This document shows positions 4,118-14,770 of a stretch of 14,770 nucleotides of DNA, piece by piece. The position numbers and the translations under genes were made by a program. Under the pieces are notes generated by a model. The model had not been told where the DNA came from, did no database searches, and saw only the letters and a program-made list of their open reading frames with translations. The stretch is from Candidatus Latescibacterota bacterium (GTDB taxonomy: Bacteria > Latescibacterota > UBA2968). Every line of letters starts with the position of its first letter. Positions within the stretch are counted from its first letter, which is position 1. Location: the NCBI GenBank assembly GCA_038279365.1, contig JAYODI010000072.1, positions 14,952-29,721 of the forward strand. Direction: 5' to 3'.

Positions 4118-5668
4118 TCAGGTTTTTTGCTCTTCTCCCTTTGTTGAGGAAGAATTTGGCTTGATGGCGTGAACAATATTTTGAATTTCTTGCATGATGG
4201 TTTTGCGTTCGATTAAGAATAAACCAAAGATGTAGCCTGTGGAAAAGAGGAAACTGCCGATGATGAAATGGGCAAGGGGTGAGACGGTGATAAGTGATGG
4301 GGCGATGGCTTGGTGGCAGGCTACTCCGATGAGGCCTGCGATGAGTGGGGGACCGAAGGTTTTGGTGATGGGGATGTCTACAAATTTTCGTGCATAGATG
4401 AGGGCTAAGATGAGGCCGATGAAGGCCATAATGTTCATGCTGAGTGCAATGCCGTAGATGCCCATTTCGCGTGCGAGTAGGGGGGCGAGGATGAGGAGGA
4501 TGAGGCCTTGTATGGCGGCAAAACGGGCGATGCTTAAGGGCGATCCAACGCTGTAGAAGAGGGCGTGGAGGTCGTCGAGGATGGGGCGGCAGAGGGAGTA
4601 GATGATGAGGGATTGGAGCAGGGGGGCGGCAGAGATCCATTCGTCGCGAAAGATGAGGATCCAGCGGTCGGCTTCGAGGGCAAGTAAAATGGATAAGGGA
4701 ACGGTGGCTCGCAGGATGAGGCGCAGGGCACGGCGATAGGCAGCAGAGAGTTGTTCGCGGTCATTTTGATAGCGGGCATAGACGGCACCAGTGATGCGCA
4801 CGATGGCCAAGGTGATGGCACCCGTGGGAATTTGAGCAAAGTCTTGTGCGGTGTCGTAGAGGCCGCGCCAGTGGAGGCCCAAGTAGAAGCTGATGATGAG
4901 TTTGTCGTAGTGTTGTACAAAGATTTTGGGTACGCCACCGAGCCAAAATTGGAATCCGTATCGAATCATTTGACGGGCGGCTTGGGCATCAAATTGTTTG
5001 AGGCGATGGAGTGGGGGTGGGTGTTTGGACCAGACGACTGCGCAAAAGACCACGACGTAAGCAACGCTGTAGGGATAGAAGCCAAGAATGAGGGCCCATT
5101 TGCCAAAGCCGAAATAGGCGAGGGTGATGCCCACAAGTGCGGCCAAGATGGTGCCACCGGCATGGGCAATTGCCAGGCGACCAAATGCAAGGTCGCGTTG
5201 GAGTTGTACTTCGGCGGTGAGGGCGGCGGTGCGGAAGAAGTCGAAAATGCCAAAGACGGCCAAGGCGAGGGCCACTTTGGGGTAGGCTTCGGTGGCGGTT
5301 GCGCCGCCGAGGTAGGCTTCGAGGGTTTGGGCCACAGCAATGGCTTGGTCGTAATAGACGGCCATGAGCAGTGCCAAGGCGGTGCTGATGCTGCCCAGGC
5401 CAATGCTTAAGACAAAATGTGTGGGCGCAAGGGTGTGGACGCGGTCGTGTTGGTGAAGAAGGGCGTAGTGCAGGCCAAAGTCACGAACGGCAACAGCCAT
5501 GGCAAGAAGTGAAAACGCCGTGCCAACCGCGCCGAAGTCTTCGGGTACGAGAATTTGTAAGAGCAAGAGCCGAACGGCAAGTGTGAGCAACCGTGCGGCA
5601 TAGGCACTGCCAAATGTTTGGATGGCTCCACGTGCAATGCGTTGGATGGCGGATTGTTCATCCGACAT
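4118..5668 (-). CDS. Wzx/MOP-family oligosaccharide flippase, 516 aa
   Basis: Polytopic membrane protein with LLQILVPEDFGAVG, QLQRDLAFGRLA, YDKLIISFYLG...GLYDTA segments. Start MSDEQ at 5668 has GAGGA upstream and overlaps the previous gene by 11 nt. Confidence 0.88.
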   Translation of the reverse strand: MSDEQSAIQRIARGAIQTFGSAYAARLLTLAVRLLLLQILVPEDFGAVGTAFSLLAMAVAVRDFGLHYALLHQHDRVHTLAPTHFVLSIGLGSISTALALLMAVYYDQAIAVAQTLEAYLGGATATEAYPKVALALAVFGIFDFFRTAALTAEVQLQRDLAFGRLAIAHAGGTILAALVGITLAYFGFGKWALILGFYPYSVAYVVVFCAVVWSKHPPPLHRLKQFDAQAARQMIRYGFQFWLGGVPKIFVQHYDKLIISFYLGLHWRGLYDTAQDFAQIPTGAITLAIVRITGAVYARYQNDREQLSAAYRRALRLILRATVPLSILLALEADRWILIFRDEWISAAPLLQSLIIYSLCRPILDDLHALFYSVGSPLSIARFAAIQGLILLILAPLLAREMGIYGIALSMNIMAFIGLILALIYARKFVDIPITKTFGPPLIAGLIGVACHQAIAPSLITVSPLAHFIIGSFLFSTGYIFGLFLIERKTIMQEIQNIVHAIKPNSSSTKGEEQKT

Positions 5669-8069
5669 CTTCGGTGTCCTCGGTGGGTTTTCGGGCAAAC
5701 ACGATGAGACCCATGATGAGTATGGCAACGCCCCCAAAGGTGATCCAACGGGTTGTGGCCACAATGGGGTCGTGGTAGCGCAATTCTACGGTGTGTTCAC
5801 CGGGTGAAAGGGCCACGGCTGTCCAGAGGTAGTTGGCGCGAATGAGAGGTTTTTGCTCACCATCAACAAAGGCTTGCCAGTGTGGGTGGTGGTTTTGTGA
5901 GATGACCAGTATGCGTGGCCCCGATGCGTTGGTGTGGAGTTTGACATGGCCTTGTCGGGCATCGTATTCGAGTTTTTCAACGGTGCCTGGTTCTTGGGCG
6001 TTGGTGTCTTGTGCGATACCTGGGTCTTCTTCTAAGAGGGCCGTTTCTTGTGGGCGGGTATTTGGATCACGTAGGCGCTCGAGAATTTGATCTTCATCAT
6101 TAATGATTTCGTATTGCGGTGCGAGGTAAAACCACGGTAGAGCAAGTGGGTTTTGGTAGATGTGTAGATTATCAGCTTCACCTGCCTTTTGCATCCAAGG
6201 TATATCGAGTGGATTGGTTGAGACAAGGTATTTGGTGTTGAGCAAGTTGAGAATGGTGGGGCGATTGAGGTCGCCAGATTTGAGAATGTGGTCGTAGCGG
6301 CCAATGGCGAAGTCGTTAAAACCTGTAACAAGGTCAATGCCATGAAGAGGAACGTCTTTTGCACTTGGATACGCGAAGACACGAAAAAGATCGGTGTCTT
6401 TTTTGAGGTAGTTGACCACATTGGGGTTGATCTGTTCTTGTGCTTGTACGACGTTGGGATTGACGTAAGAGAGAAACAATTTGTCGATGCGCCATGTGTC
6501 AACGATGATGAGTGGGATAAGAATGAGGGCAAAGACATGAGGTTGTAATTTGTTTTGAAGCCGTAGGTGTGTGAGCAGGGTCATGATGCCCACAAAAAGT
6601 GCGGCCAAAAGTGCGCCTTGTCCGAGATAGCCTAAACTGGCTTGTGCCACTTGCATTTTGGGGGCTGGCATGTCTGTCCATAAAATGCTGCGCCAAATAG
6701 AAAGTAGGGTTGCGGGTGAAAAGGAAAAGATGAGCAGAACAATTGCGGATGCACTGCCTGCAATGAGAAACTTGCGCGCAGTTTCGGGGGCAAGGTCTGC
6801 GTTGAGAATGCGGTGAAGACCATAGGCTGATAAGAGGCACAATGCAAAGGCATATAAGAAGGCGATCATGCCAGGGGCACGCAACACATTAACACCGGGT
6901 ATGAGATAATAAAAGATTTTGTGCAAAGGTGTGTGTGGGCCTAATGCAAAGGCAATGGCAAGAATGAAAAGTGCAAACAGAAAGGCGATATGTGACTTTT
7001 TGCGCATGAATGTGAGCGCAAAGAGACCAAAGAACAACGGAATGATGCCAACATATTCAGAGTTGCCTTTGAACAGGTTTCGCCCCCAATAATGGTAACC
7101 GTCTTCGTTTTGATCTACGCCCGGAAATTTTGAATCAAACCCACCAAATTCGGGAATGACAAGGGCGAAAATTTCTTCGGGGTGGAGCGACCAGGACGAC
7201 GCGTATTCGTAGCCTGCACCAGCTTGTTCTTTGCCAGCCCGTTTGGTTACGGTTTTTGTGTTCCAATATTGTGGAAACACACCTTCGGCTCCAATGGCCA
7301 AACCCAAACAGATGGCACCTGCAGAAAGGAGTGAGCGATAGAGTGCGCTGTTGATGTTTTTGTCTTGGAGATAGTGCTGCACCACTTTGTAAAGATAGAG
7401 CAGGCCCAATGCCCAAAGTGCGAAGTAAACCATTTGCAAGTGAGGGGTATAAATGCTGATGCCTACGGTACCACCAAGTATGAGAAAGTAGATGATTTTT
7501 TTGGTGTCCATGCCTTGGTAGAGAGCCCAATACATGAGTGGTAAAAATGAGATCACAGACATTTTGGCAAAATGTCCGGCATGGGTGAATGTAAGCAATG
7601 TGGGGGTTGATGCATAAGCCACACCGGCAACAAGTGCTGCGAGAGGATGAAGCCCCAAGGCGCGGGCACAGAGAAAGGTGAAGTATCCGGCACAGAACAT
7701 GGCAAAGACATAACGCCAACCAAAGTAACGGTGTTCACTGGTAAAAAGTGCGATAATTTGAAGTGGGAAATATTGTGCACGCAGGCCACTGGATTCAGGT
7801 GTGCCGCCCATATAGCGGCTCCAGTTGGCAGGTGGGATTTGCGCCAATTTTTCAACGAAGGAACCTTGGCCTTTTTGAAGTTCAAAACCCGTGTCGGAAC
7901 CCAGTATGACATCACCTGTAAAGATAAAACGATAAAAATAGATGATGGTGAGGAGAGCAAAGAATGCAACGGGTACCCACGGCTTGGACAATTTTTCTGT
8001 GAGCGATGTTGATTCTGTGGTGTCGGTTGTTTGTGAGGTGGGTCGCGTTTGGCGTGCGCGTTTGCTCAT
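5658..8069 (-). CDS. YfhO-family large membrane protein (GT-C-like), 803 aa
   Basis: SWSLHPEEIFALVIP, YVGIIPL, LNLLNTKYLV, NPLALPWFY and C-terminal HPHWQAFVDGEQKPLIRANYLWTAVALSPGEHTVELRY. ATG at 8069 overlaps the upstream stop (ATGA) and has an AAAGGA Shine-Dalgarno. Confidence 0.85.
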   Translation of the reverse strand: MSKRARQTRPTSQTTDTTESTSLTEKLSKPWVPVAFFALLTIIYFYRFIFTGDVILGSDTGFELQKGQGSFVEKLAQIPPANWSRYMGGTPESSGLRAQYFPLQIIALFTSEHRYFGWRYVFAMFCAGYFTFLCARALGLHPLAALVAGVAYASTPTLLTFTHAGHFAKMSVISFLPLMYWALYQGMDTKKIIYFLILGGTVGISIYTPHLQMVYFALWALGLLYLYKVVQHYLQDKNINSALYRSLLSAGAICLGLAIGAEGVFPQYWNTKTVTKRAGKEQAGAGYEYASSWSLHPEEIFALVIPEFGGFDSKFPGVDQNEDGYHYWGRNLFKGNSEYVGIIPLFFGLFALTFMRKKSHIAFLFALFILAIAFALGPHTPLHKIFYYLIPGVNVLRAPGMIAFLYAFALCLLSAYGLHRILNADLAPETARKFLIAGSASAIVLLIFSFSPATLLSIWRSILWTDMPAPKMQVAQASLGYLGQGALLAALFVGIMTLLTHLRLQNKLQPHVFALILIPLIIVDTWRIDKLFLSYVNPNVVQAQEQINPNVVNYLKKDTDLFRVFAYPSAKDVPLHGIDLVTGFNDFAIGRYDHILKSGDLNRPTILNLLNTKYLVSTNPLDIPWMQKAGEADNLHIYQNPLALPWFYLAPQYEIINDEDQILERLRDPNTRPQETALLEEDPGIAQDTNAQEPGTVEKLEYDARQGHVKLHTNASGPRILVISQNHHPHWQAFVDGEQKPLIRANYLWTAVALSPGEHTVELRYHDPIVATTRWITFGGVAILIMGLIVFARKPTEDTEDVG

Positions 8070-9625
8070 GGTGTGTTTCCTTTGGGTTGACGTTGCCAAA
8101 TGATGAGTTGGCGCATGGTGTATGTGGCAATGGCAATGAGTATGAGAATTGTGAAAAGTAAAACGATTGTAAGTGTTGTGCTTAATAAACCGGTTTGGAT
8201 GGCGTTGAGCCACCAGATGTCGATGATGTCGTAGTTTTCTAATGAGGCCGAGAGTGATCGCTCTGTGCCCGATGAAATGGTGTAGCTAAGTGATGTGCCT
8301 GTGAGGATATGTTTGATGCCTGAGGTGAGTTGATAATATCCACCGAGAATAGGTGAGAGATAAGGCGAAAAGAGCAAGTCGCCTGGGTGACCGGAGTTGA
8401 ATAGAAGGTCGCCTATTTTTTTGTCTTGAACAAAGCGCACAAAAAGATGTGGGTTGATGAGTGCACCGGGTAATTGGGTGATAAGACCTGCGATGCCAAA
8501 TGCCAAGACGCGTTTTTTGGCTGTTGATTGGATGAGGCCGCCAAGTGGAATGATGATATAAGGGATGATGGGAAGGAGGTAACGTGGCCCCCAACTTGAT
8601 CCGGCATGCCAGTCGATCATGAATGTAAAAAAGATAAAGTGGATCGCGATGAGATGTGCAAAGAGTTTGGCTTCTTTGGGGTGTTCTGTTTTGAAGTGAC
8701 GATAGGCAAAAGGAAAGAGGCAAATGGCAGGCAAAAAGAAAACAAGCCCACGTCCAGTACTCAAAAGAAGGCCGTATAAAGCTGTGATGATTTGTGTGGG
8801 CAAAAATGCAAAATAGCCACCTTGTTGTGCCAAGGTATCGAGGTGATATCCTGTGTGAAACATGTTGTTGTATCGTACATGGTTGTGAAAAAGAATCAGA
8901 ACTAAGAAAAAAAACAAGGGTGCAATAATGGTAATGGCTGAAAGACGTTTGTTGGATTGTGTTTTGAAGGTTGGCCAAATGTATAACAAAAAGATGGGCA
9001 AGGTGATGGCGACATAGAGTTTGGTTAAGATGGCAAACCCGATGCAGATGCTTGCGACAACCAAGGCCCAAAGGGATTCGTGTTTAACAAAATAAAAACA
9101 ACCGCCAGTTGCGCCTAAGAGTGCGATGCCCACAAGGGGTTCTGAAAAACCATATCCGGCATAGGGAAAAACCATTGATCCGAAAGCAAAAAAAACCGTG
9201 AGCCACCAGACAGTGTTGTGTCGATATCCGAAACGTATGGCAAGGCGAAAGAACCCGAGGCACCAAAGGGCACAGATGAATACATTGGTGAGTGAGGTGG
9301 TGAACATGGTCAAATAGTCGGCGGGTAATTTTTTTATAAATTGCGATAAGATATGGCCGACCACAAAAAAAGGCAGTTCGGCAAGCGGTAACCCTAAGCC
9401 ATATTTGGAGTAGGTACGCAGAGAAGATGCGACAGATTGGTATTGGCGTTGCATTTCGGGGATGGCAAAATCTTGGTTGGATATGATAAGGTCACCGTTG
9501 TACACCAAACTGCGTGCAGTGAGATAATTCCAAAAACCATCGCCACCATAATGTCCACCAGCTGTGAGCAGGTAGATGCAACTGATGCAGATGAAGAGAT
9601 AGAGAGAGGCGGTTTTGTTGGTCAT
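8066..9625 (-). CDS. GT-C-like integral membrane protein (putative lipid-carrier-dependent glycosyltransferase), 519 aa
   Basis: N-terminal helix followed by GGDGFWNYLTARSLV; YSKYGLG, FSEP, AILTK and SWGPRYLLP segments; many hydrophobic helices; GAGG upstream. Confidence 0.65.
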   Translation of the reverse strand: MTNKTASLYLFICISCIYLLTAGGHYGGDGFWNYLTARSLVYNGDLIISNQDFAIPEMQRQYQSVASSLRTYSKYGLGLPLAELPFFVVGHILSQFIKKLPADYLTMFTTSLTNVFICALWCLGFFRLAIRFGYRHNTVWWLTVFFAFGSMVFPYAGYGFSEPLVGIALLGATGGCFYFVKHESLWALVVASICIGFAILTKLYVAITLPIFLLYIWPTFKTQSNKRLSAITIIAPLFFFLVLILFHNHVRYNNMFHTGYHLDTLAQQGGYFAFLPTQIITALYGLLLSTGRGLVFFLPAICLFPFAYRHFKTEHPKEAKLFAHLIAIHFIFFTFMIDWHAGSSWGPRYLLPIIPYIIIPLGGLIQSTAKKRVLAFGIAGLITQLPGALINPHLFVRFVQDKKIGDLLFNSGHPGDLLFSPYLSPILGGYYQLTSGIKHILTGTSLSYTISSGTERSLSASLENYDIIDIWWLNAIQTGLLSTTLTIVLLFTILILIAIATYTMRQLIIWQRQPKGNTP

Positions 9626-9700: not shown

Positions 9701-10813
9701 TCAGGTTTTTTGAATGGCATCGTAAACTTTTTGATAGACACGTTCTTGTTCTGCGGCAATGCGATCCCAGGTAAATTGGTCGGCCCATTTGCGTCCTTCC
9801 TGGCCCAATTTTTGACGTTGTGTGGGGTCGTCTAAGAGTTGTTTCATTGCGTTTGCGAGTGCATTGTGATCTTCGGATGGCACGAGCAGACCGGTTTCAT
9901 TGGGGCGAATGGCATCGGCGAGGCCGGGTATGTTGGTGCCGACGACGGCTTTTCCGGCGGCTCCGGCTTCAATGGCCACAATGCCCCAACCTTCATAGCG
10001 CGAAGGCATGCAGACAAAAAGCGCACTGCCAAAGAGGTCGTTTTTTTGTTCTTGTGTGGCTGGCCCAAAAAATTCTATGCGGTTTTCAATGCCGAGTTCG
10101 GTTGCCAAGTTTTGTAGTTCTTGCTGGCGTTCGGGCGCGCCACGTCCGGCGAGGATGAGGCGCACATCTTTGCGGTTGAGTTGGGCAAATGCGCGAAAGA
10201 GGACGTCGAGGCCTTTGGTGTGAATGTCGAGGCGACCAAAATAAAGGATGTAGTCTTTTTCTTCACCTTGGGCTTGAAAGGAAATGTCATCTACGCCCGT
10301 GTAAACGAGGTTGAGATCGGCGGTGATGCCTTTGTCTTTGAGTTGTTGGGTGACGGTGGGTGAGATGGTAAGGATATAAGGATGCGTTTTGAGCACATGC
10401 TTTTCTGCGTGTTGGGCCACGTGACCGAGTAGTGGAAATTTTTCGGTGGCGTGGTCGCCCATGAGGTGAAAAAATTCGAGCAGACTGCGTTGGCGTAGGG
10501 CTTTGGATGCATGGAGTGGGGCATAAGCTGAAAAACCATACACCCAAAGATCAAAATCGCCTCGGGCCACTTCGCGCGAAGCGGCGGCGGCAAAGCTGAG
10601 TCGGCTGAGCAAGTAGGATCGGTTGGTGCCCACACGTTTGATGTGTACACCGTCGCGTTCAATTTCACGTTTACAATCGGGAAAAGCACCCACAATGCTG
10701 GTGATGTCGTGACGACTGCTGAGTTGACGAGAGATTTCTTGCGTGCGCAAGGCACCTCCGCCCCCGCACCAGGGGTTTTCAAAGTCGTCGTATACGGTGT
10801 GGAGAATTTTCAT
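9701..10813 (-). CDS. GT4 family glycosyltransferase, 370 aa
   Basis: NPWCGGGGA, YFGRLDIHTKGLD and PSRYEGWGIVAIEAGAAGKAVV (intact EX7E), ETGLLV, FTWDRIA. Confidence 0.93.
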   Translation of the reverse strand: MKILHTVYDDFENPWCGGGGALRTQEISRQLSSRHDITSIVGAFPDCKREIERDGVHIKRVGTNRSYLLSRLSFAAAASREVARGDFDLWVYGFSAYAPLHASKALRQRSLLEFFHLMGDHATEKFPLLGHVAQHAEKHVLKTHPYILTISPTVTQQLKDKGITADLNLVYTGVDDISFQAQGEEKDYILYFGRLDIHTKGLDVLFRAFAQLNRKDVRLILAGRGAPERQQELQNLATELGIENRIEFFGPATQEQKNDLFGSALFVCMPSRYEGWGIVAIEAGAAGKAVVGTNIPGLADAIRPNETGLLVPSEDHNALANAMKQLLDDPTQRQKLGQEGRKWADQFTWDRIAAEQERVYQKVYDAIQKT

Positions 10814-10824
10814 AAAGATTCAGT

Positions 10825-11826
10825 TTATGCTTGGGTGGCAACAAGATGAGCTTCTATAATTTCTTCTATTGAAACGGTATCAACACCGACTTTGCCGACC
10901 ACAATGCCACCGGCTAAGTTGCCAATATAAGCGGCTTCGGCGGGTGATGCACCTGAGAGCTGTGCAAGCGTGTAAACGGCGGCGGTGGAATCGCCTGCGC
11001 CAGAGACATCGAAGACGTCGCGTGCGGTGGCGGGGATGTGTGTAACTTGTCCGTTGGCTTCAAAGAGGGCCACGCCTTTTTCACTGCGGGTCATGTAGAC
11101 TTGCTCAATTTCAAATTGTTTGACGAGGCGGTGTCCGATTTCGATGACTGTTTTTTCGTCTGCCTCATCAAGATTAAATACACCGATGGCCTCCGATTGG
11201 TTCGGAGAAATTGCAGTGAGGCCAAAATATTTGTCAAAGTTACGACCTTTGGGGTCTGCCATGACGGGGTAGTTGTGTTGTTTTTTGACTTGGCGCATGG
11301 CGTCCATAAATGGGGCGGTGACCACACCTTTGGCATAGTCAGATACAAAAATGGCATTGAGTGATTGGGCTTGGGTGATGGCATTGATCAATTGTTCCAA
11401 TAATGTATCGTCAATGGGGGTGCTGATTTCTCGATCAACACGTAGCATTTGTTGTTGCTGGCGATATTGGGTGTGTCCCATCACGCGGGTTTTGGTGGTG
11501 GTGGGGCGATTGGCGTCTGTGATGAGAGCCGATGTGTTGATGCCTGATTTTTCGAGTGTATTGGTCAGATGTTTGGCATTGTCGTCATTTCCAACAAGGC
11601 CAGCAATGGTGACGGTGGCACCGAGGAGGCGCAAGTTATAGGCCACATTGGCGGCACCACCTGGGCGGTAGGTTTCTTGTTCGACACTGACCACAGGTAC
11701 GGGGGCTTCGGGTGAGATGCGTTTGGTTGCGCCCCACAGATAGTGGTCGAGCATGACGTCGCCAACGACGAGTACGTGTTGGTTGGGAAATCCGTTGAGG
11801 ATGTCACGGAGACGTTCGGAGGTCAT
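10825..11826 (-). CDS. rfaE1: D-glycero-beta-D-manno-heptose-7-phosphate kinase (HldA / RfaE domain I, PfkB family), 333 aa
   Basis: [62 protein letters not shown] overlap with the upstream gene. Confidence 0.93.
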
Positions 11827-13250
11827 TTGCTTCCTTTGATTTTTTCAACAATGTTGGTGGTGGAGCGGCCTTCGACCAAGGGAATGGTGGTGACCATGCC
11901 CCCTGCGTTTTCGACTTCTTCGCGCCCAACAATGTCTTGCACGTTGTAGTCGCCCCCTTTGATGAGCACGTCGGGTAACAGTGCGGCAATGAGTTCGCGT
12001 GGGGTGTCTTCGTCAAAGGGGATGATGTGGTCGATGCATTCGAGTGCGGCGAGCACACCTGCGCGATCTTCGAGGGGCAAGATGGGGCGGCTGGGGCCTT
12101 TGAGGCGTTGTACGGAGGCATCGGTGTTGAGGCCGAGAAAGAGGACATCGCCTTGTTCGCGTGCTTTTTGAAGGTAGGTGACATGGCCACGGTGGAGGAG
12201 GTCGAAACAGCCGTTGGTGAAGACGGTTTTGATGCCGAGTTCTTTTAAGCGATTGCGTACCGATATGGCTTGTGCGCGAGTTAGGATTTTGTTTTCAGAT
12301 GCAGTTACGCGGTCGTCGAGTGATTCGGCAAGTGCATGGGCAAGGAGAGGGATCATGATTTCGTGGTGGCCGGTGAAGCTGTAGCCTGTGCCGCCTTGCA
12401 TGGTGGGGCGTTGGACGACGTTGACGCGGGGGCGATAGTGTTGGATCATGTCGAAGTTGGCGGTGACAAAGTGATCCACGGTGTGGCCTAAGTTGCGGGC
12501 GACTGTGAGGGCTTTGAGAAATACTTCGGGTAAGAGGACGGCGGAACCGATGTTGAGGTAGGCGCCACCTTCGAGGGAGGCGACAACCGAGCAGAAGGTT
12601 TCGAAGTCTTTGTATGAGGCCCGACCGATGGCTTCACCGTTTGCGGTGGGTTGTTGTTGAACAATGTCGGTGCCAATGGCTACGTGTACGGTGACGGGAA
12701 TGTCTAATTCATAGGCGGTGGCCAAGATGCTGGTGTGGCAATAGGGTTGGCTGGTTTCGACGAGTTTTTGGCCGAGTGTTTTGCCGTATCCGAGGGAGGT
12801 GTTTTCTATGGCGTGGTTGATGAATGTGCCGGTGTCTTGGGCCATACCAAAGGAGCCGTCTTTGAGGCCTTCGGCAACGTCTTCGGAGGTTTGGCCTTGC
12901 ATGGCAATTTCAACATCGTGAATGGATGTGGAGCCGTTCATGGCAATGGCGGAGATCCAACCGCGTTTCATGAGGTCGATGAGGATGGGCGCGAGGCCAC
13001 ATTTGATGACATGGCCGCCGATGCCGATGGCAATGGTTTTGTTATTGCGGATGGCTTGTGAGAGGGTGCGGATGAGGTTTCGAAAGTCGGCACCGATGAG
13101 GATGTCGGGGAGGCTGGTGAGGAAGTGGCCGAAGGAGGCCCCACCATGAGCGGAGGTGGCAAAGGTGGCGAGGGAGACTTTGTTGGGGCGATTGGATAGG
13201 GGATAGGTTTGGACTTTGGAGAGGTCTATTTTGGGGAAGTTTTTGGGCAC
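11823..13250 (-). CDS. rfaE2: Fusion: N-terminal deoxyhypusine-synthase-like domain plus C-terminal heptose-1-phosphate nucleotidyltransferase (HldC / RfaE domain II), ~475 aa
   Basis: C-terminal ~155 aa: [57 protein letters not shown]-terminal: [50 protein letters not shown] start at 13250 chosen for AAGGA 7 nt upstream. The symbol refers to the C-terminal domain only. Confidence 0.82.
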
Positions 13251-13299
13251 TTTTGAGTCCTTGGTAACAATCGGTATTTTTGTATGATTTGTCGTTTTG

Positions 13300-13514
13300 T
13301 TGCCTTCGGCGAGATACATTTTTTTACGGCAAAAAAAGTATCCCAAAAAGCCGCCACTGCGTGGAGCTTTCATTTTGTTCAGTGTTTTTATGGGCGTAGG
13401 CCACCCTCACCTGCCCGTGCAGTTCCCACCCTGCCACGTGTTCCACACGTCCCTTCCACACCCACCCATCACATCCACACCAACTGCACAACGGCCCACA
13501 CCACCCGTGGGTGG
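13300..13514 (-). repeat. Copy 2 of the ~220-nt structured dispersed element
   Basis: Colinear with 3892-4114; identical blocks at 13300-13312, 13398-13420 and 13475-13505. Confidence 0.85.
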
Positions 13515-13530
13515 AATTGAAGTTTTAGAT

Positions 13531-13779
13531 ATGATTCGATTGGCTTTTAATCTTGAGTCCGTAGGATTTTTCCCTAAAATAGCACCGGAATTTATTCCGG
13601 TGCGGTTGATTCGATGATTTTCGAAAGGGTTTTAGGTGTTTTATCCTGTTGGCCATGATTCGATTGTCTTTTGATCTCGAGTCCGTAGGACTTTTCTCTA
13701 AAATAGCACCGGAATTTATTCCGGTGCGGTTGATCGGGCGATGACCGAATTAATATTTCAATCTCCATTATTCCGGTGC
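13531..13779. repeat. Two 80-bp direct repeats (13531-13610, 13655-13734), each with a 22-bp palindrome, plus a half-palindrome remnant (13768-13779)
   Basis: 75/80 identical, period 124 nt. GCACCGGAAT-TT-ATTCCGGTGC at 13582-13603 and 13706-13727; small AGTCC-GTA-GGAYT hairpin in each unit. Confidence 0.9.
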
Positions 13780-13784
13780 AGAGG

Positions 13785-14351
13785 TTATGGGTGTGTATCT
13801 ATAATCCAATTGGCAACATCTAAGAGATCGTTGCCTATGTAGCTGATTTGTTTGCGCGTTTGAGCGTTGGCTTGATTGAGCACGTCTTCACCATAGCCTG
13901 TGCGAACGAGGGCCGATTGGCATCCGGCGTTCCAGCCGGCTTGGAGGTCGCTGAGGCTGTCGCCGATCATGTATGAACGCGAGAGGTCGAGGTTGTGTTC
14001 TTTGGCGGCGCGTTGGAGCATGTGGGGTTTGGGTTTGCGACAGTTGCAGATCACCTTTTCGCCATATTCGGGGTGATGGGGGCAATGGTAGATGGCGTTG
14101 AGGGTTGCGTTTTGGTTTGCCAGTTGACGTTTGAGTTCGGTGTGTATTTCTGTGAGGCCTGCTTCGGTGAGGAGGCCTCTGGCAATGGCCGATTGATTTG
14201 TGATGACAATGATTGCATAACCAGCGGCATTGAGTTTGGCAATGGCTTTGTCTGCGTTGGGGATGAGTTGGAGGTCTTCAACGCGGTGTAGGTGGCGCAC
14301 ATTGACGTTGATGGTGCCATCGCGGTCAATGAATACGGCTGGGTGACTCAT
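13785..14351 (-). CDS. gmhB: GmhB-type HAD phosphatase (heptose-1,7-bisphosphate phosphatase; histidinol-phosphatase activity not excluded), 188 aa
   Basis: PAVFIDRDGTIN, VITNQSAIARG, Zn-site CPHHP...CNCRKPKP, MIGDSLSDLQAG, VRTGYG. ATG at 14351 overlaps the hisB stop (ATGA). Confidence 0.85.
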   Translation of the reverse strand: MSHPAVFIDRDGTINVNVRHLHRVEDLQLIPNADKAIAKLNAAGYAIIVITNQSAIARGLLTEAGLTEIHTELKRQLANQNATLNAIYHCPHHPEYGEKVICNCRKPKPHMLQRAAKEHNLDLSRSYMIGDSLSDLQAGWNAGCQSALVRTGYGEDVLNQANAQTRKQISYIGNDLLDVANWIIDTHP

Positions 14352-14770
14352 AGGCTGCCTTTGGTTGAGGGCACGCCTGTAACCCGTGGGTCTTGTGAAA
14401 CGGCTTGGCGCAAGGCTCGGGCAACGGCTTTGAAGATGGCTTCCATGCCGTGGTGGGCGTTGCTGGCGCGAATGAGGTCGATGTGTAGGTTGAAGCGTCC
14501 GTTTTGTGAGAGTGCGGTGAAAAATTCCATACCGAGTGATGTGGGAAAGGTGCCAATCATTTCTTCGGTGAATGTGGCTTCGTAAACGAGGTGACCACGG
14601 CCAGAGAGGTCGATGACGGCTCTGGCGAGGGCTTCGTCCATGGGCACATAGGCCGAACCAAATCGGGTGATGCCTTTTTTGTCGCCGAGGGCTTTTTCGA
14701 GGGCTTGGCCGATGCAAATGCCTACGTCTTCTACGGTGTGGTGGGCGTCTACTTCCAGATCGCCTTTGCA
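14348..14770 (-). CDS. hisB: Imidazoleglycerol-phosphate dehydratase, 5'-truncated by the window edge
   Basis: Frame is open to the window end: KGDLEVDAHHTVEDVGI...GITRFG...PMDEAL...DLSGR...NAHHGMEAIFKA...PSTKGSL, containing both HHxxE metal motifs. Confidence 0.97.
   Translation of the reverse strand, partial: CKGDLEVDAHHTVEDVGICIGQALEKALGDKKGITRFGSAYVPMDEALARAVIDLSGRGHLVYEATFTEEMIGTFPTSLGMEFFTALSQNGRFNLHIDLIRASNAHHGMEAIFKAVARALRQAVSQDPRVTGVPSTKGSL

Follow-up and report, generated by a model that had tools for sequence, protein, structure and literature searches.

The pathway to ADP-heptose passes for completely known and comprises GmhA, HldA or HldE, GmhB, HldC and HldD. It is an antibiotic target, and ADP-heptose is a signal to the innate immune system. 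HldD (also RfaD or GmhD) is the ADP-L-glycero-D-manno-heptose 6-epimerase, a short-chain dehydrogenase/reductase (SDR) with tightly bound NADP, and HldE (RfaE) of Escherichia coli is a bifunctional kinase/adenylyltransferase. The known deoxyhypusine synthase (DHS) and ornithine-cyclodeaminase branches of a different fold "borrow" hydride on a tightly bound dinucleotide cofactor. Here we describe a gene that joins these two subjects, an HldC domain fused to a DHS-like domain of the GSU2086 family, within 14,770 nucleotides of a Candidatus Latescibacterota genome (assembly GCA_038279365.1, contig JAYODI010000072.1, positions 14,952 to 29,721; this whole stretch is "the window"). As in HldE, the HldC half is C-terminal. 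The kinase is encoded by the gene that follows, which is translationally coupled to the fusion; unlike in HldE, the fusion partner of HldC is the GSU2086 domain and not the kinase.

From the family membership, fold, fusion, gene linkage and genome patterns of this domain we infer a catalytic activity, a substrate, a target carbon and a cofactor. We tentatively read the domain as a heptose-phosphate epimerase that works by hydride shuttling, takes the place of HldD and possibly depends on a nickel-pincer nucleotide. New here are the quantified exclusion of HldD in two phyla, a split of the family into two subfamilies, and an association with LarC that is reported together with its counter-evidence.

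A GSU2086-family domain fused to HldC

The longest open reading frame (ORF) across the fused gene in the ORF list, 11823..13373 on the minus strand, encodes 516 aa. Its codon 42 is a GTG start candidate at window position 13250 with AAGGA 8 nt upstream, and this is the only in-frame start that yields the length of the close relatives of the fused protein (473-479 aa). Given these lengths and the AAGGA 5' of the GTG, the true extent of the gene is most likely 11823-13250. Its stop overlaps the start of hldA by 4 bases (ATGA). The parts of the gene are as follows.

11823..13250, minus strand: fused gene, GSU2086 domain::HldC, 475 codons from the GTG at 13250 (ORF list and translation)
12333..13232, minus strand: GSU2086-family domain with the DHS / ornithine-cyclodeaminase fold, ORF residues 48-347 (NF052581, AlphaFold2 model, fold matches)
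12255..12332, minus strand: interdomain linker, which includes [10 protein letters not shown], ORF residues 348-373, between the two profile matches
11835..12254, minus strand: HldC domain, D-glycero-beta-D-manno-heptose 1-phosphate adenylyltransferase, ORF residues 374-513 (TIGR02199, Pfam CTP_transf_like)

The N-terminal domain (ORF residues 48-347) matches the NCBIfam model NF052581, "GSU2086 family protein", over profile positions 1-301 of 301, with 419.2 bits against a cut-off of 250 (421.1 bits for the fused copy in the whole-genome search). By family membership the HldC half is a predicted heptose 1-phosphate adenylyltransferase: residues 374-513 score 195.9 bits with TIGR02199 (rfaE domain II; cut-off 181.5) and 60.6 bits with Pfam CTP_transf_like, and Pfam was above threshold for this half only. 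The linker stretch ...[13 protein letters not shown]... is found in the translation of the fused protein. Neither an epimerase or SDR family nor the SIS family (GmhA, TIGR00441) was reported for the fused protein by Pfam or NCBIfam.

The fusion occurs in about 50 of the 120 protein clusters listed (those numbered P0001-P0055, at 46-94% identity, have the Pfam domain of HldC). Most fused relatives are 473-495 aa long with 90-92% of the query covered. They span several phyla, with Latescibacterota and Gemmataceae among the source labels, and some come from complete chromosomes. The closest complete chromosome, labelled Latescibacterota, has the order fused gene, hldA, GT4, membrane glycosyltransferase, as in the window, and there the fused gene is preceded by a histidine operon. 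Because it recurs in this way, the fusion is not an assembly artefact, an error that the earlier note on this DNA had proposed to check against relatives.

The GSU2086 family is catalogued (NF052581) and uncharacterised. A search of 1.84 billion representatives with its profile gives 1068 clusters (50% identity level, E <= 1e-30), and the family is present in 132 of the 201 Desulfobacterota and 50 of the 151 Acidobacteriota sampled. The usual member is a stand-alone protein of ~315 aa. The domain in the window resembles the namesake, Geobacter sulfurreducens GSU2086, in its full-length match above the cut-off and its heptose-gene neighborhood, and differs from it in being fused to HldC. The only mention of "GSU2086" that we found in the literature is as a hypothetical protein in a transposon-sequencing (Tn-seq) table. 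That table (PMC5585712) places it between hldE and gmhA and gives it a comparable Tn-seq defect, for which polarity is a possible cause.

An AlphaFold2 model of the domain, built from an alignment of 40 sequences (38-62% identity to the query), reached a pLDDT of 93.5 and a pTM of 0.90. Foldseek searches with the model ranked DHS first (E 2e-9, TM 0.58-0.64, 10-16% identity). In VIA-align, the C-terminal domain of AgrE scored Z 20.7, Trypanosoma brucei DHS 19.5, Methanococcus maripaludis 3c2q 19.2 and two further DHS structures 19.1 and 18.9; sirtuins formed the next group, with Z near 11, and the likeness to GmhA was weak (Z 7.4-8.1). When the sequence profile was compared with the PDB, the nearest proteins were ArgZ, AgrE and 3c2q (E 0.005-0.05), and DHS followed at E 0.89. 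No structure of a GSU2086-family member was found among solved proteins. Based on the structural tie of the model to DHS, AgrE and 3c2q, and on the profile being nearest to ArgZ, AgrE and 3c2q, the family makes up a third branch within the DHS / ornithine-cyclodeaminase fold.

Membership in either known branch is a different matter. The domain shares with DHS and homospermidine synthase its fold (Z 18.9-19.5, TM ~0.6) and the alignment of glycine-rich loops and an HD motif in the N-terminal half, but it stays below the gathering score of Pfam DS (PF01916; 23 bits vs 27). The DHS and homospermidine equivalog models gave 18-22 bits against cut-offs of 364-450, and the NCBIfam DHS models NF002006 and NF002630 gave 18-20 bits against 364-434. 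The hallmark of DHS is a catalytic lysine near the C terminus (EAxSWGK). The translation of the fused protein contains no SWGK, and the C-terminal part of the 40-sequence alignment has no conserved lysine; the sole lysine-majority position there (GGKGY) is T in the window protein. Also unlike DHS, the context is one of heptose genes rather than of polyamines or a translation factor.

On the side of the cyclodeaminases (TIGR00300, the C-terminal part of ArgZ-AgrE) the domain finds its closest structure and best PDB profile match; hydride-borrowing chemistry, in part as proposed here, and co-occurrence with lar genes are further likenesses. The GSU2086 copies are nevertheless not members: TIGR00300 did not match the fused copy (cut-off 410.8) and gave 18 bits for a second genomic copy, and Pfam ArgZ-like_C_2nd gave 17.7 bits against 27 for the fused protein. 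The substrate class would differ as well, and nickel is a feature of the cyclodeaminase. We had considered the HD motif as a signature exclusive to nickel-dependent cyclodeaminases and dropped it, since HD also stands at the aligned position of the archaeal DHS 8put.

Much of this had been anticipated in the earlier note, made from the sequence alone. Its span for the gene, its single frame running through the linker into HldC, the coupling to the kinase gene, the GSU2086 family that it named, and its impression by eye of a DHS-like fold without the catalytic-lysine motif all agree with the profile scores, the ATGA overlap and the structural comparisons (Z 19-21).

The gene neighborhoods were surveyed in 80 loci from named genomes with at least a dozen phylum-level labels, plus the two copies of this genome (82 in all). 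ORFs were called by a simple greedy script that kept the GSU2086 gene in 69 of the 82 loci and displaced it by a longer spurious ORF in 13. A GmhA-like SIS gene is present in 24/82 loci, and in 22 of the 69 with the gene called it is the immediate upstream neighbor in the same orientation; among these 69, HldA or HldE occurs in 13, a GT9 heptosyltransferase-like gene in 10 and GmhB in 4. Other recurrent neighbors are housekeeping genes (uvrA, hemC, cobA/hemD, adk, mtnA). Fusions point the same way. Of the 96 relatives above 546 aa in length, 61 have SIS, seven HldC, four PfkB and two HAD, with an SDR epimerase domain in 0/96, and family scans confirmed the architectures HldC-GmhB-GSU2086, GSU2086-HldC-KdsB, GSU2086-HldE and GSU2086-SIS. 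The proposal that the domain acts inside the heptose pathway, on a heptose intermediate, is thus well supported by gene order and fusions in many phyla, which also bears out the association of the family with heptose genes in other bacteria that the earlier note had named. Literature joining "deoxyhypusine synthase-like" with heptose was not found.

Two members of the survey are odd. In P0178 (614 aa, on a 3.7-kb contig) a truncated YjeF NAD(P)HX-repair protein is joined to the GSU2086 domain from profile position 51; either the contig or the gene call is probably chimeric, because both parts are cut at the junction. Locus L024 comes from a 1.0-Mb genome labelled Candidatus Saccharibacteria (G010) and holds a compact operon of GSU2086, an HldC-GmhB fusion, GmhA, HldA and two GT9-like genes; HldD, LarC and LarB were not found in this genome. 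The lineage of that label is usually described as being without lipopolysaccharide (LPS), so a heptose operon is odd there and the label or the binning may be wrong.

The genome of the window encodes a second GSU2086 protein, stand-alone, 325 aa long and 38% identical to the domain (391.6 bits; C109:4608-5534, L002 1486-2463). Its gene lies between those of a HAD hydrolase and cutC, beside a DUF6298/apiosidase-like glycoside hydrolase gene. The 80 metagenome loci closest to this copy carry an HldA-like kinase in 51/80, a SIS gene in 15/80 and HldC in only 2/80. The family therefore splits into a GmhA/HldC-linked and a kinase-cassette subfamily. A kinase without HldC implies that the family also works where no nucleotide sugar is made, and its substrate may thus be a heptose phosphate rather than ADP-heptose.

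Distribution of HldD and a proposed role of the GSU2086 domain

The genome of the window encodes a GmhA-like protein, HldA, GmhB, HldC and two GT9 proteins. HldD was not found in it (the best match to TIGR02197 is 143 bits vs a cut-off of 274.6) and is the one canonical heptose step that is missing. We scored HldD as present where TIGR02197 exceeded this cut-off and took the phylum as labelled on the seed record. Among the 44 genomes of mixed phyla that hold the fetched GSU2086 loci, HldD was above the cut-off in 3. Within two phyla the counts, which are uncorrected for phylogeny, with p-values (Fisher test) that overstate the evidence, are as follows.

201 Desulfobacterota: both genes 9, GSU2086 only 123, HldD only 38, neither 31 (Fisher p 5e-14)
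192 of those Desulfobacterota with HldC: both 9, GSU2086 only 118, HldD only 38, neither 27 (p 2e-14)
151 Acidobacteriota: both 2, GSU2086 only 48, HldD only 29, neither 72 (p 2e-4)

Removal of three Acidobacteriota flagged as unpublished (G320, G417, G295; none HldD-positive) changes the last row to 2, 47, 29 and 70. Of the 11 genomes with both genes, five, including both Acidobacteriota, carry the kinase-cassette subfamily alone. Gammaproteobacteria were considered as an independent replicate and set aside: the "Chromatiales" genome G014 shares its order with the Ignavibacteria-labelled G020, and 28/30 members carry the gene, which leaves no contrast. The phylogenetic profiling against hldD that the earlier note had suggested thus finds the two genes rarely co-resident.

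Replacement of HldD is the best-supported specific role for the domain, judged from these genome comparisons. The N-terminal domain would be a catalytic member of the GSU2086 family that oxidises a single carbinol carbon of a heptose phosphate and then reduces it again, with no net redox change. This would most likely be the C6 epimerisation of D-glycero-D-manno-heptose 7-phosphate, or of a later phosphate intermediate, to the L-glycero form, after which HldA, GmhB and the fused HldC would give ADP-L,D-heptose with no need for the SDR epimerase HldD. For the cofactor we propose either NAD or a nickel-pincer nucleotide supplied by LarB, LarC and LarE, the latter by analogy with the TIGR00300 cyclodeaminases, which share the fold. 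The parallel with HldD would lie in its C6 inversion by transient oxidation, and the two families largely exclude each other. They differ in fold (a Rossmann SDR in HldD, DHS-like in GSU2086) and probably in substrate, which for GSU2086 would be a heptose phosphate, and their equivalence is put forward tentatively.

Several observations weigh against the replacement of HldD. Six Desulfobacterota have a GmhA-adjacent GSU2086 together with HldD. Clade effects could yield the HldD pattern and equally the LarC association described below. Genomes with neither gene and yet an HldC-like gene are common (27/192 Desulfobacterota, about 69 of 146 Acidobacteriota), which implies that a heptose pathway needs neither enzyme. 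Finally, in Coxiella loss of HldD simply gives an LPS with D,D-heptose (PMC13252051).

The main rival, less probable than the replacement of HldD and somewhat unlikely in our view, is that the domain catalyzes some other modification of a heptose phosphate (an epimerisation of another kind, the handling of a keto intermediate, or an isomerisation), leading to a different heptose for which HldD is useless. The pathway linkage fits this equally well, and the six genomes that retain HldD beside a GmhA-adjacent copy speak for it. So do the kinase-cassette loci, whose gene content suggests sugar phosphates outside ADP-heptose synthesis, and the operon of the window, which runs on into GT4, membrane glycosyltransferase and flippase genes and not into the classic inner-core set. 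Against this, a shared function is the simplest explanation for the mutual exclusion of GSU2086 and HldD in two phyla, and no other missing step was identified.

It is improbable that the domain is a non-catalytic module binding a nucleotide or ADP-sugar, that is, a regulator or scaffold that senses NAD(H) or ADP-heptose and tunes the neighboring enzymes. DHS- and sirtuin-type folds do bind ADP-containing ligands, and fusion to four different pathway enzymes is what a regulatory module might show. However, the 40-sequence alignment has 46 invariant columns, among them four His and several Asp, Glu and Arg as well as K247, the only invariant Lys; polar residues (His, Asp, Glu, Arg, Lys, Asn) thus stay invariant down to 38% identity, and the mostly stand-alone ~315-aa members show enzyme-like conservation.

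Replacement of GmhA, the sedoheptulose 7-phosphate isomerase, is very improbable. It might seem favored by the frequent adjacency to the isomerase-step gene and by the weak fold likeness to GmhA, but that same adjacency takes the idea out, because GmhA adjoins GSU2086 (22/69 loci) or is fused to it (SIS in 61/96 long forms). Moreover, this genome has a GmhA-like gene elsewhere, which matches NF010546 better than DiaA (118 bits; the cut-off of 276 is not reached), and PMC5585712 has Geobacter GSU2086 in one table with hldE and gmhA. Of the interpretation first offered for the fusion, then, action on a heptose intermediate stands with the linkage and fusions and an HldD replacement fits the genome counts, whereas the GmhA substitute falls away. 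As for a true deoxyhypusine or homospermidine synthase, or a fusion made by misassembly, the shared fold and weak sub-threshold DS matches give these virtually no chance beside model scores of 18-23 bits, the lack of a conserved C-terminal lysine, the heptose context and a fusion seen in about 50 clusters.

NAD or a nickel-pincer nucleotide as possible cofactor

The NCBIfam name of TIGR00300 is nickel-pincer nucleotide-dependent ornithine cyclodeaminase, and PMC13524815 credits the nickel-pincer cofactor of the cyclodeaminase to Desguin 2025. We compared the presence of LarC in carriers and non-carriers of GSU2086.

Desulfobacterota: LarC in 130/132 GSU2086 carriers and 50/69 non-carriers (Fisher p 3e-8)
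Acidobacteriota: LarC in 47/50 carriers and 61/101 non-carriers (Fisher p 6e-6)
Mixed-phylum set: LarC in 39/44 carriers; carriers alone were sampled

Without the flagged genomes, the Acidobacteriota counts are 46/49 carriers and 60/99 non-carriers. Among LarC-negative Desulfobacterota, 17/21 are HldD genomes. LarB was present in four of nine rechecked carriers without LarC, so LarC was probably missed in these four. The genome of the window encodes LarC (201.8 bits), LarE (319.2 bits) and LarB (292.9 bits), all above the cut-offs. From the co-occurrence with larC, the nickel-pincer cofactor is possibly in use and is a live alternative to NAD.

A nickel cofactor also meets with counter-evidence. 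Five rechecked carriers (G095, G389, G398, G009, G010) have neither LarC nor LarB, and in one of them, the 1-Mb genome G010 with its full heptose operon, no lar gene was found. LarC is common regardless of GSU2086, being present in 90% of the Desulfobacterota and 72% of the Acidobacteriota sampled. LarB, LarC and LarE were absent within 8 kb of GSU2086 in 162 loci searched by tblastn (82 genome loci and 80 metagenome loci of the second subfamily), and one LarA lies ~6.5 kb from GSU2086 (L172). We had considered GSU2086 as the sole client of orphan LarBCE and rejected this, as it is not enriched in genomes with LarC and without LarA (50/68 vs 80/112). This genome also encodes a LarA homologue, and therefore has another possible client for the cofactor. 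Literature linking the nickel-pincer cofactor with heptose or with DHS was not found. Overall, we regard it as doubtful that GSU2086 is a new class of nickel-pincer enzymes, a DHS-fold heptose-phosphate 6-epimerase used by much of the bacterial tree in place of HldD, the NADP-dependent SDR.

Genes around the fusion and wider meaning

The fused gene lies among further heptose and glycosyltransferase genes.

10825..11826, minus strand: hldA, heptose 7-phosphate kinase (TIGR02198, 354.3 bits vs a cut-off of 345)
13785..14768, minus strand: gmhB-like HAD-IIIA phosphatase (NF006506, 185.8 bits vs a cut-off of 178; the HAD part is ORF residues 141-324)
9701..10813, minus strand: first downstream GT4 glycosyltransferase (Pfam Glycos_transf_1, 143.5 bits), tightly packed with hldA

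The gmhB-like gene is upstream of the fused gene, ~530 bp apart. Its ORF runs past the window end and has an N-terminal extension of at least 140 residues (window 14349-14768) with no match in Pfam or NCBIfam. Downstream of hldA the window encodes three GT4 glycosyltransferases and two large membrane proteins resembling glycosyltransferases, and also a YfhO-like protein and a flippase of the Wzx type; on the same strand, ~500 bp past the left window edge, lies a gene of the GT9 heptosyltransferase family. Within the operon that holds the heptose genes, two large membrane proteins are weakly assigned: one of 851 aa (window 5658-8213, minus strand) has a YfhO-like tail at 38 bits, with weak family support, and one of 519 aa (window 8066-9625, minus strand) has a sub-threshold match to an LA_3751/LA_3752-like glycosyltransferase (48.5 bits vs 200).

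Between gmhB and the fused gene (window 13531-13749) is a 124-bp tandem direct repeat in two copies that are 87% identical. Each copy holds a perfect hairpin (9-bp stem) and, after it on the minus strand, a T-rich tail. With up to 2 mismatches allowed, this hairpin is present at ~22 distinct sites in the genome vs 0 for a reversed control, and thus looks like a dispersed REP-like or terminator-like element. Just upstream of the ATG of the long ORF, the stretch 13385-13520 (minus strand) is G/T-rich with repeated GGGTG/GTGTGG words, and no sigma-70-like site was found on the coding strand. An Rfam scan of the window gave 0 matches.

Because a strongly conserved fifth family is fused, in one lineage or another, to all four early enzymes, the textbook ADP-heptose pathway appears incomplete for a large part of the Gram-negative bacteria. 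Replacement of HldD by GSU2086, if true, would be a clean case of non-orthologous displacement. Should the nickel reading prove true, LPS heptose synthesis in carriers would be nickel-dependent, which would concern about two thirds of the Desulfobacterota and one third of the Acidobacteriota in our samples, and many genomes that make the cofactor without having LarA would be explained (GSU2086 is present in 50/68 such Desulfobacterota). The use of nickel would also add a third protein scaffold and the first sugar-phosphate substrate to a very small cofactor family, and would tie synthesis of the cell envelope to nickel supply.

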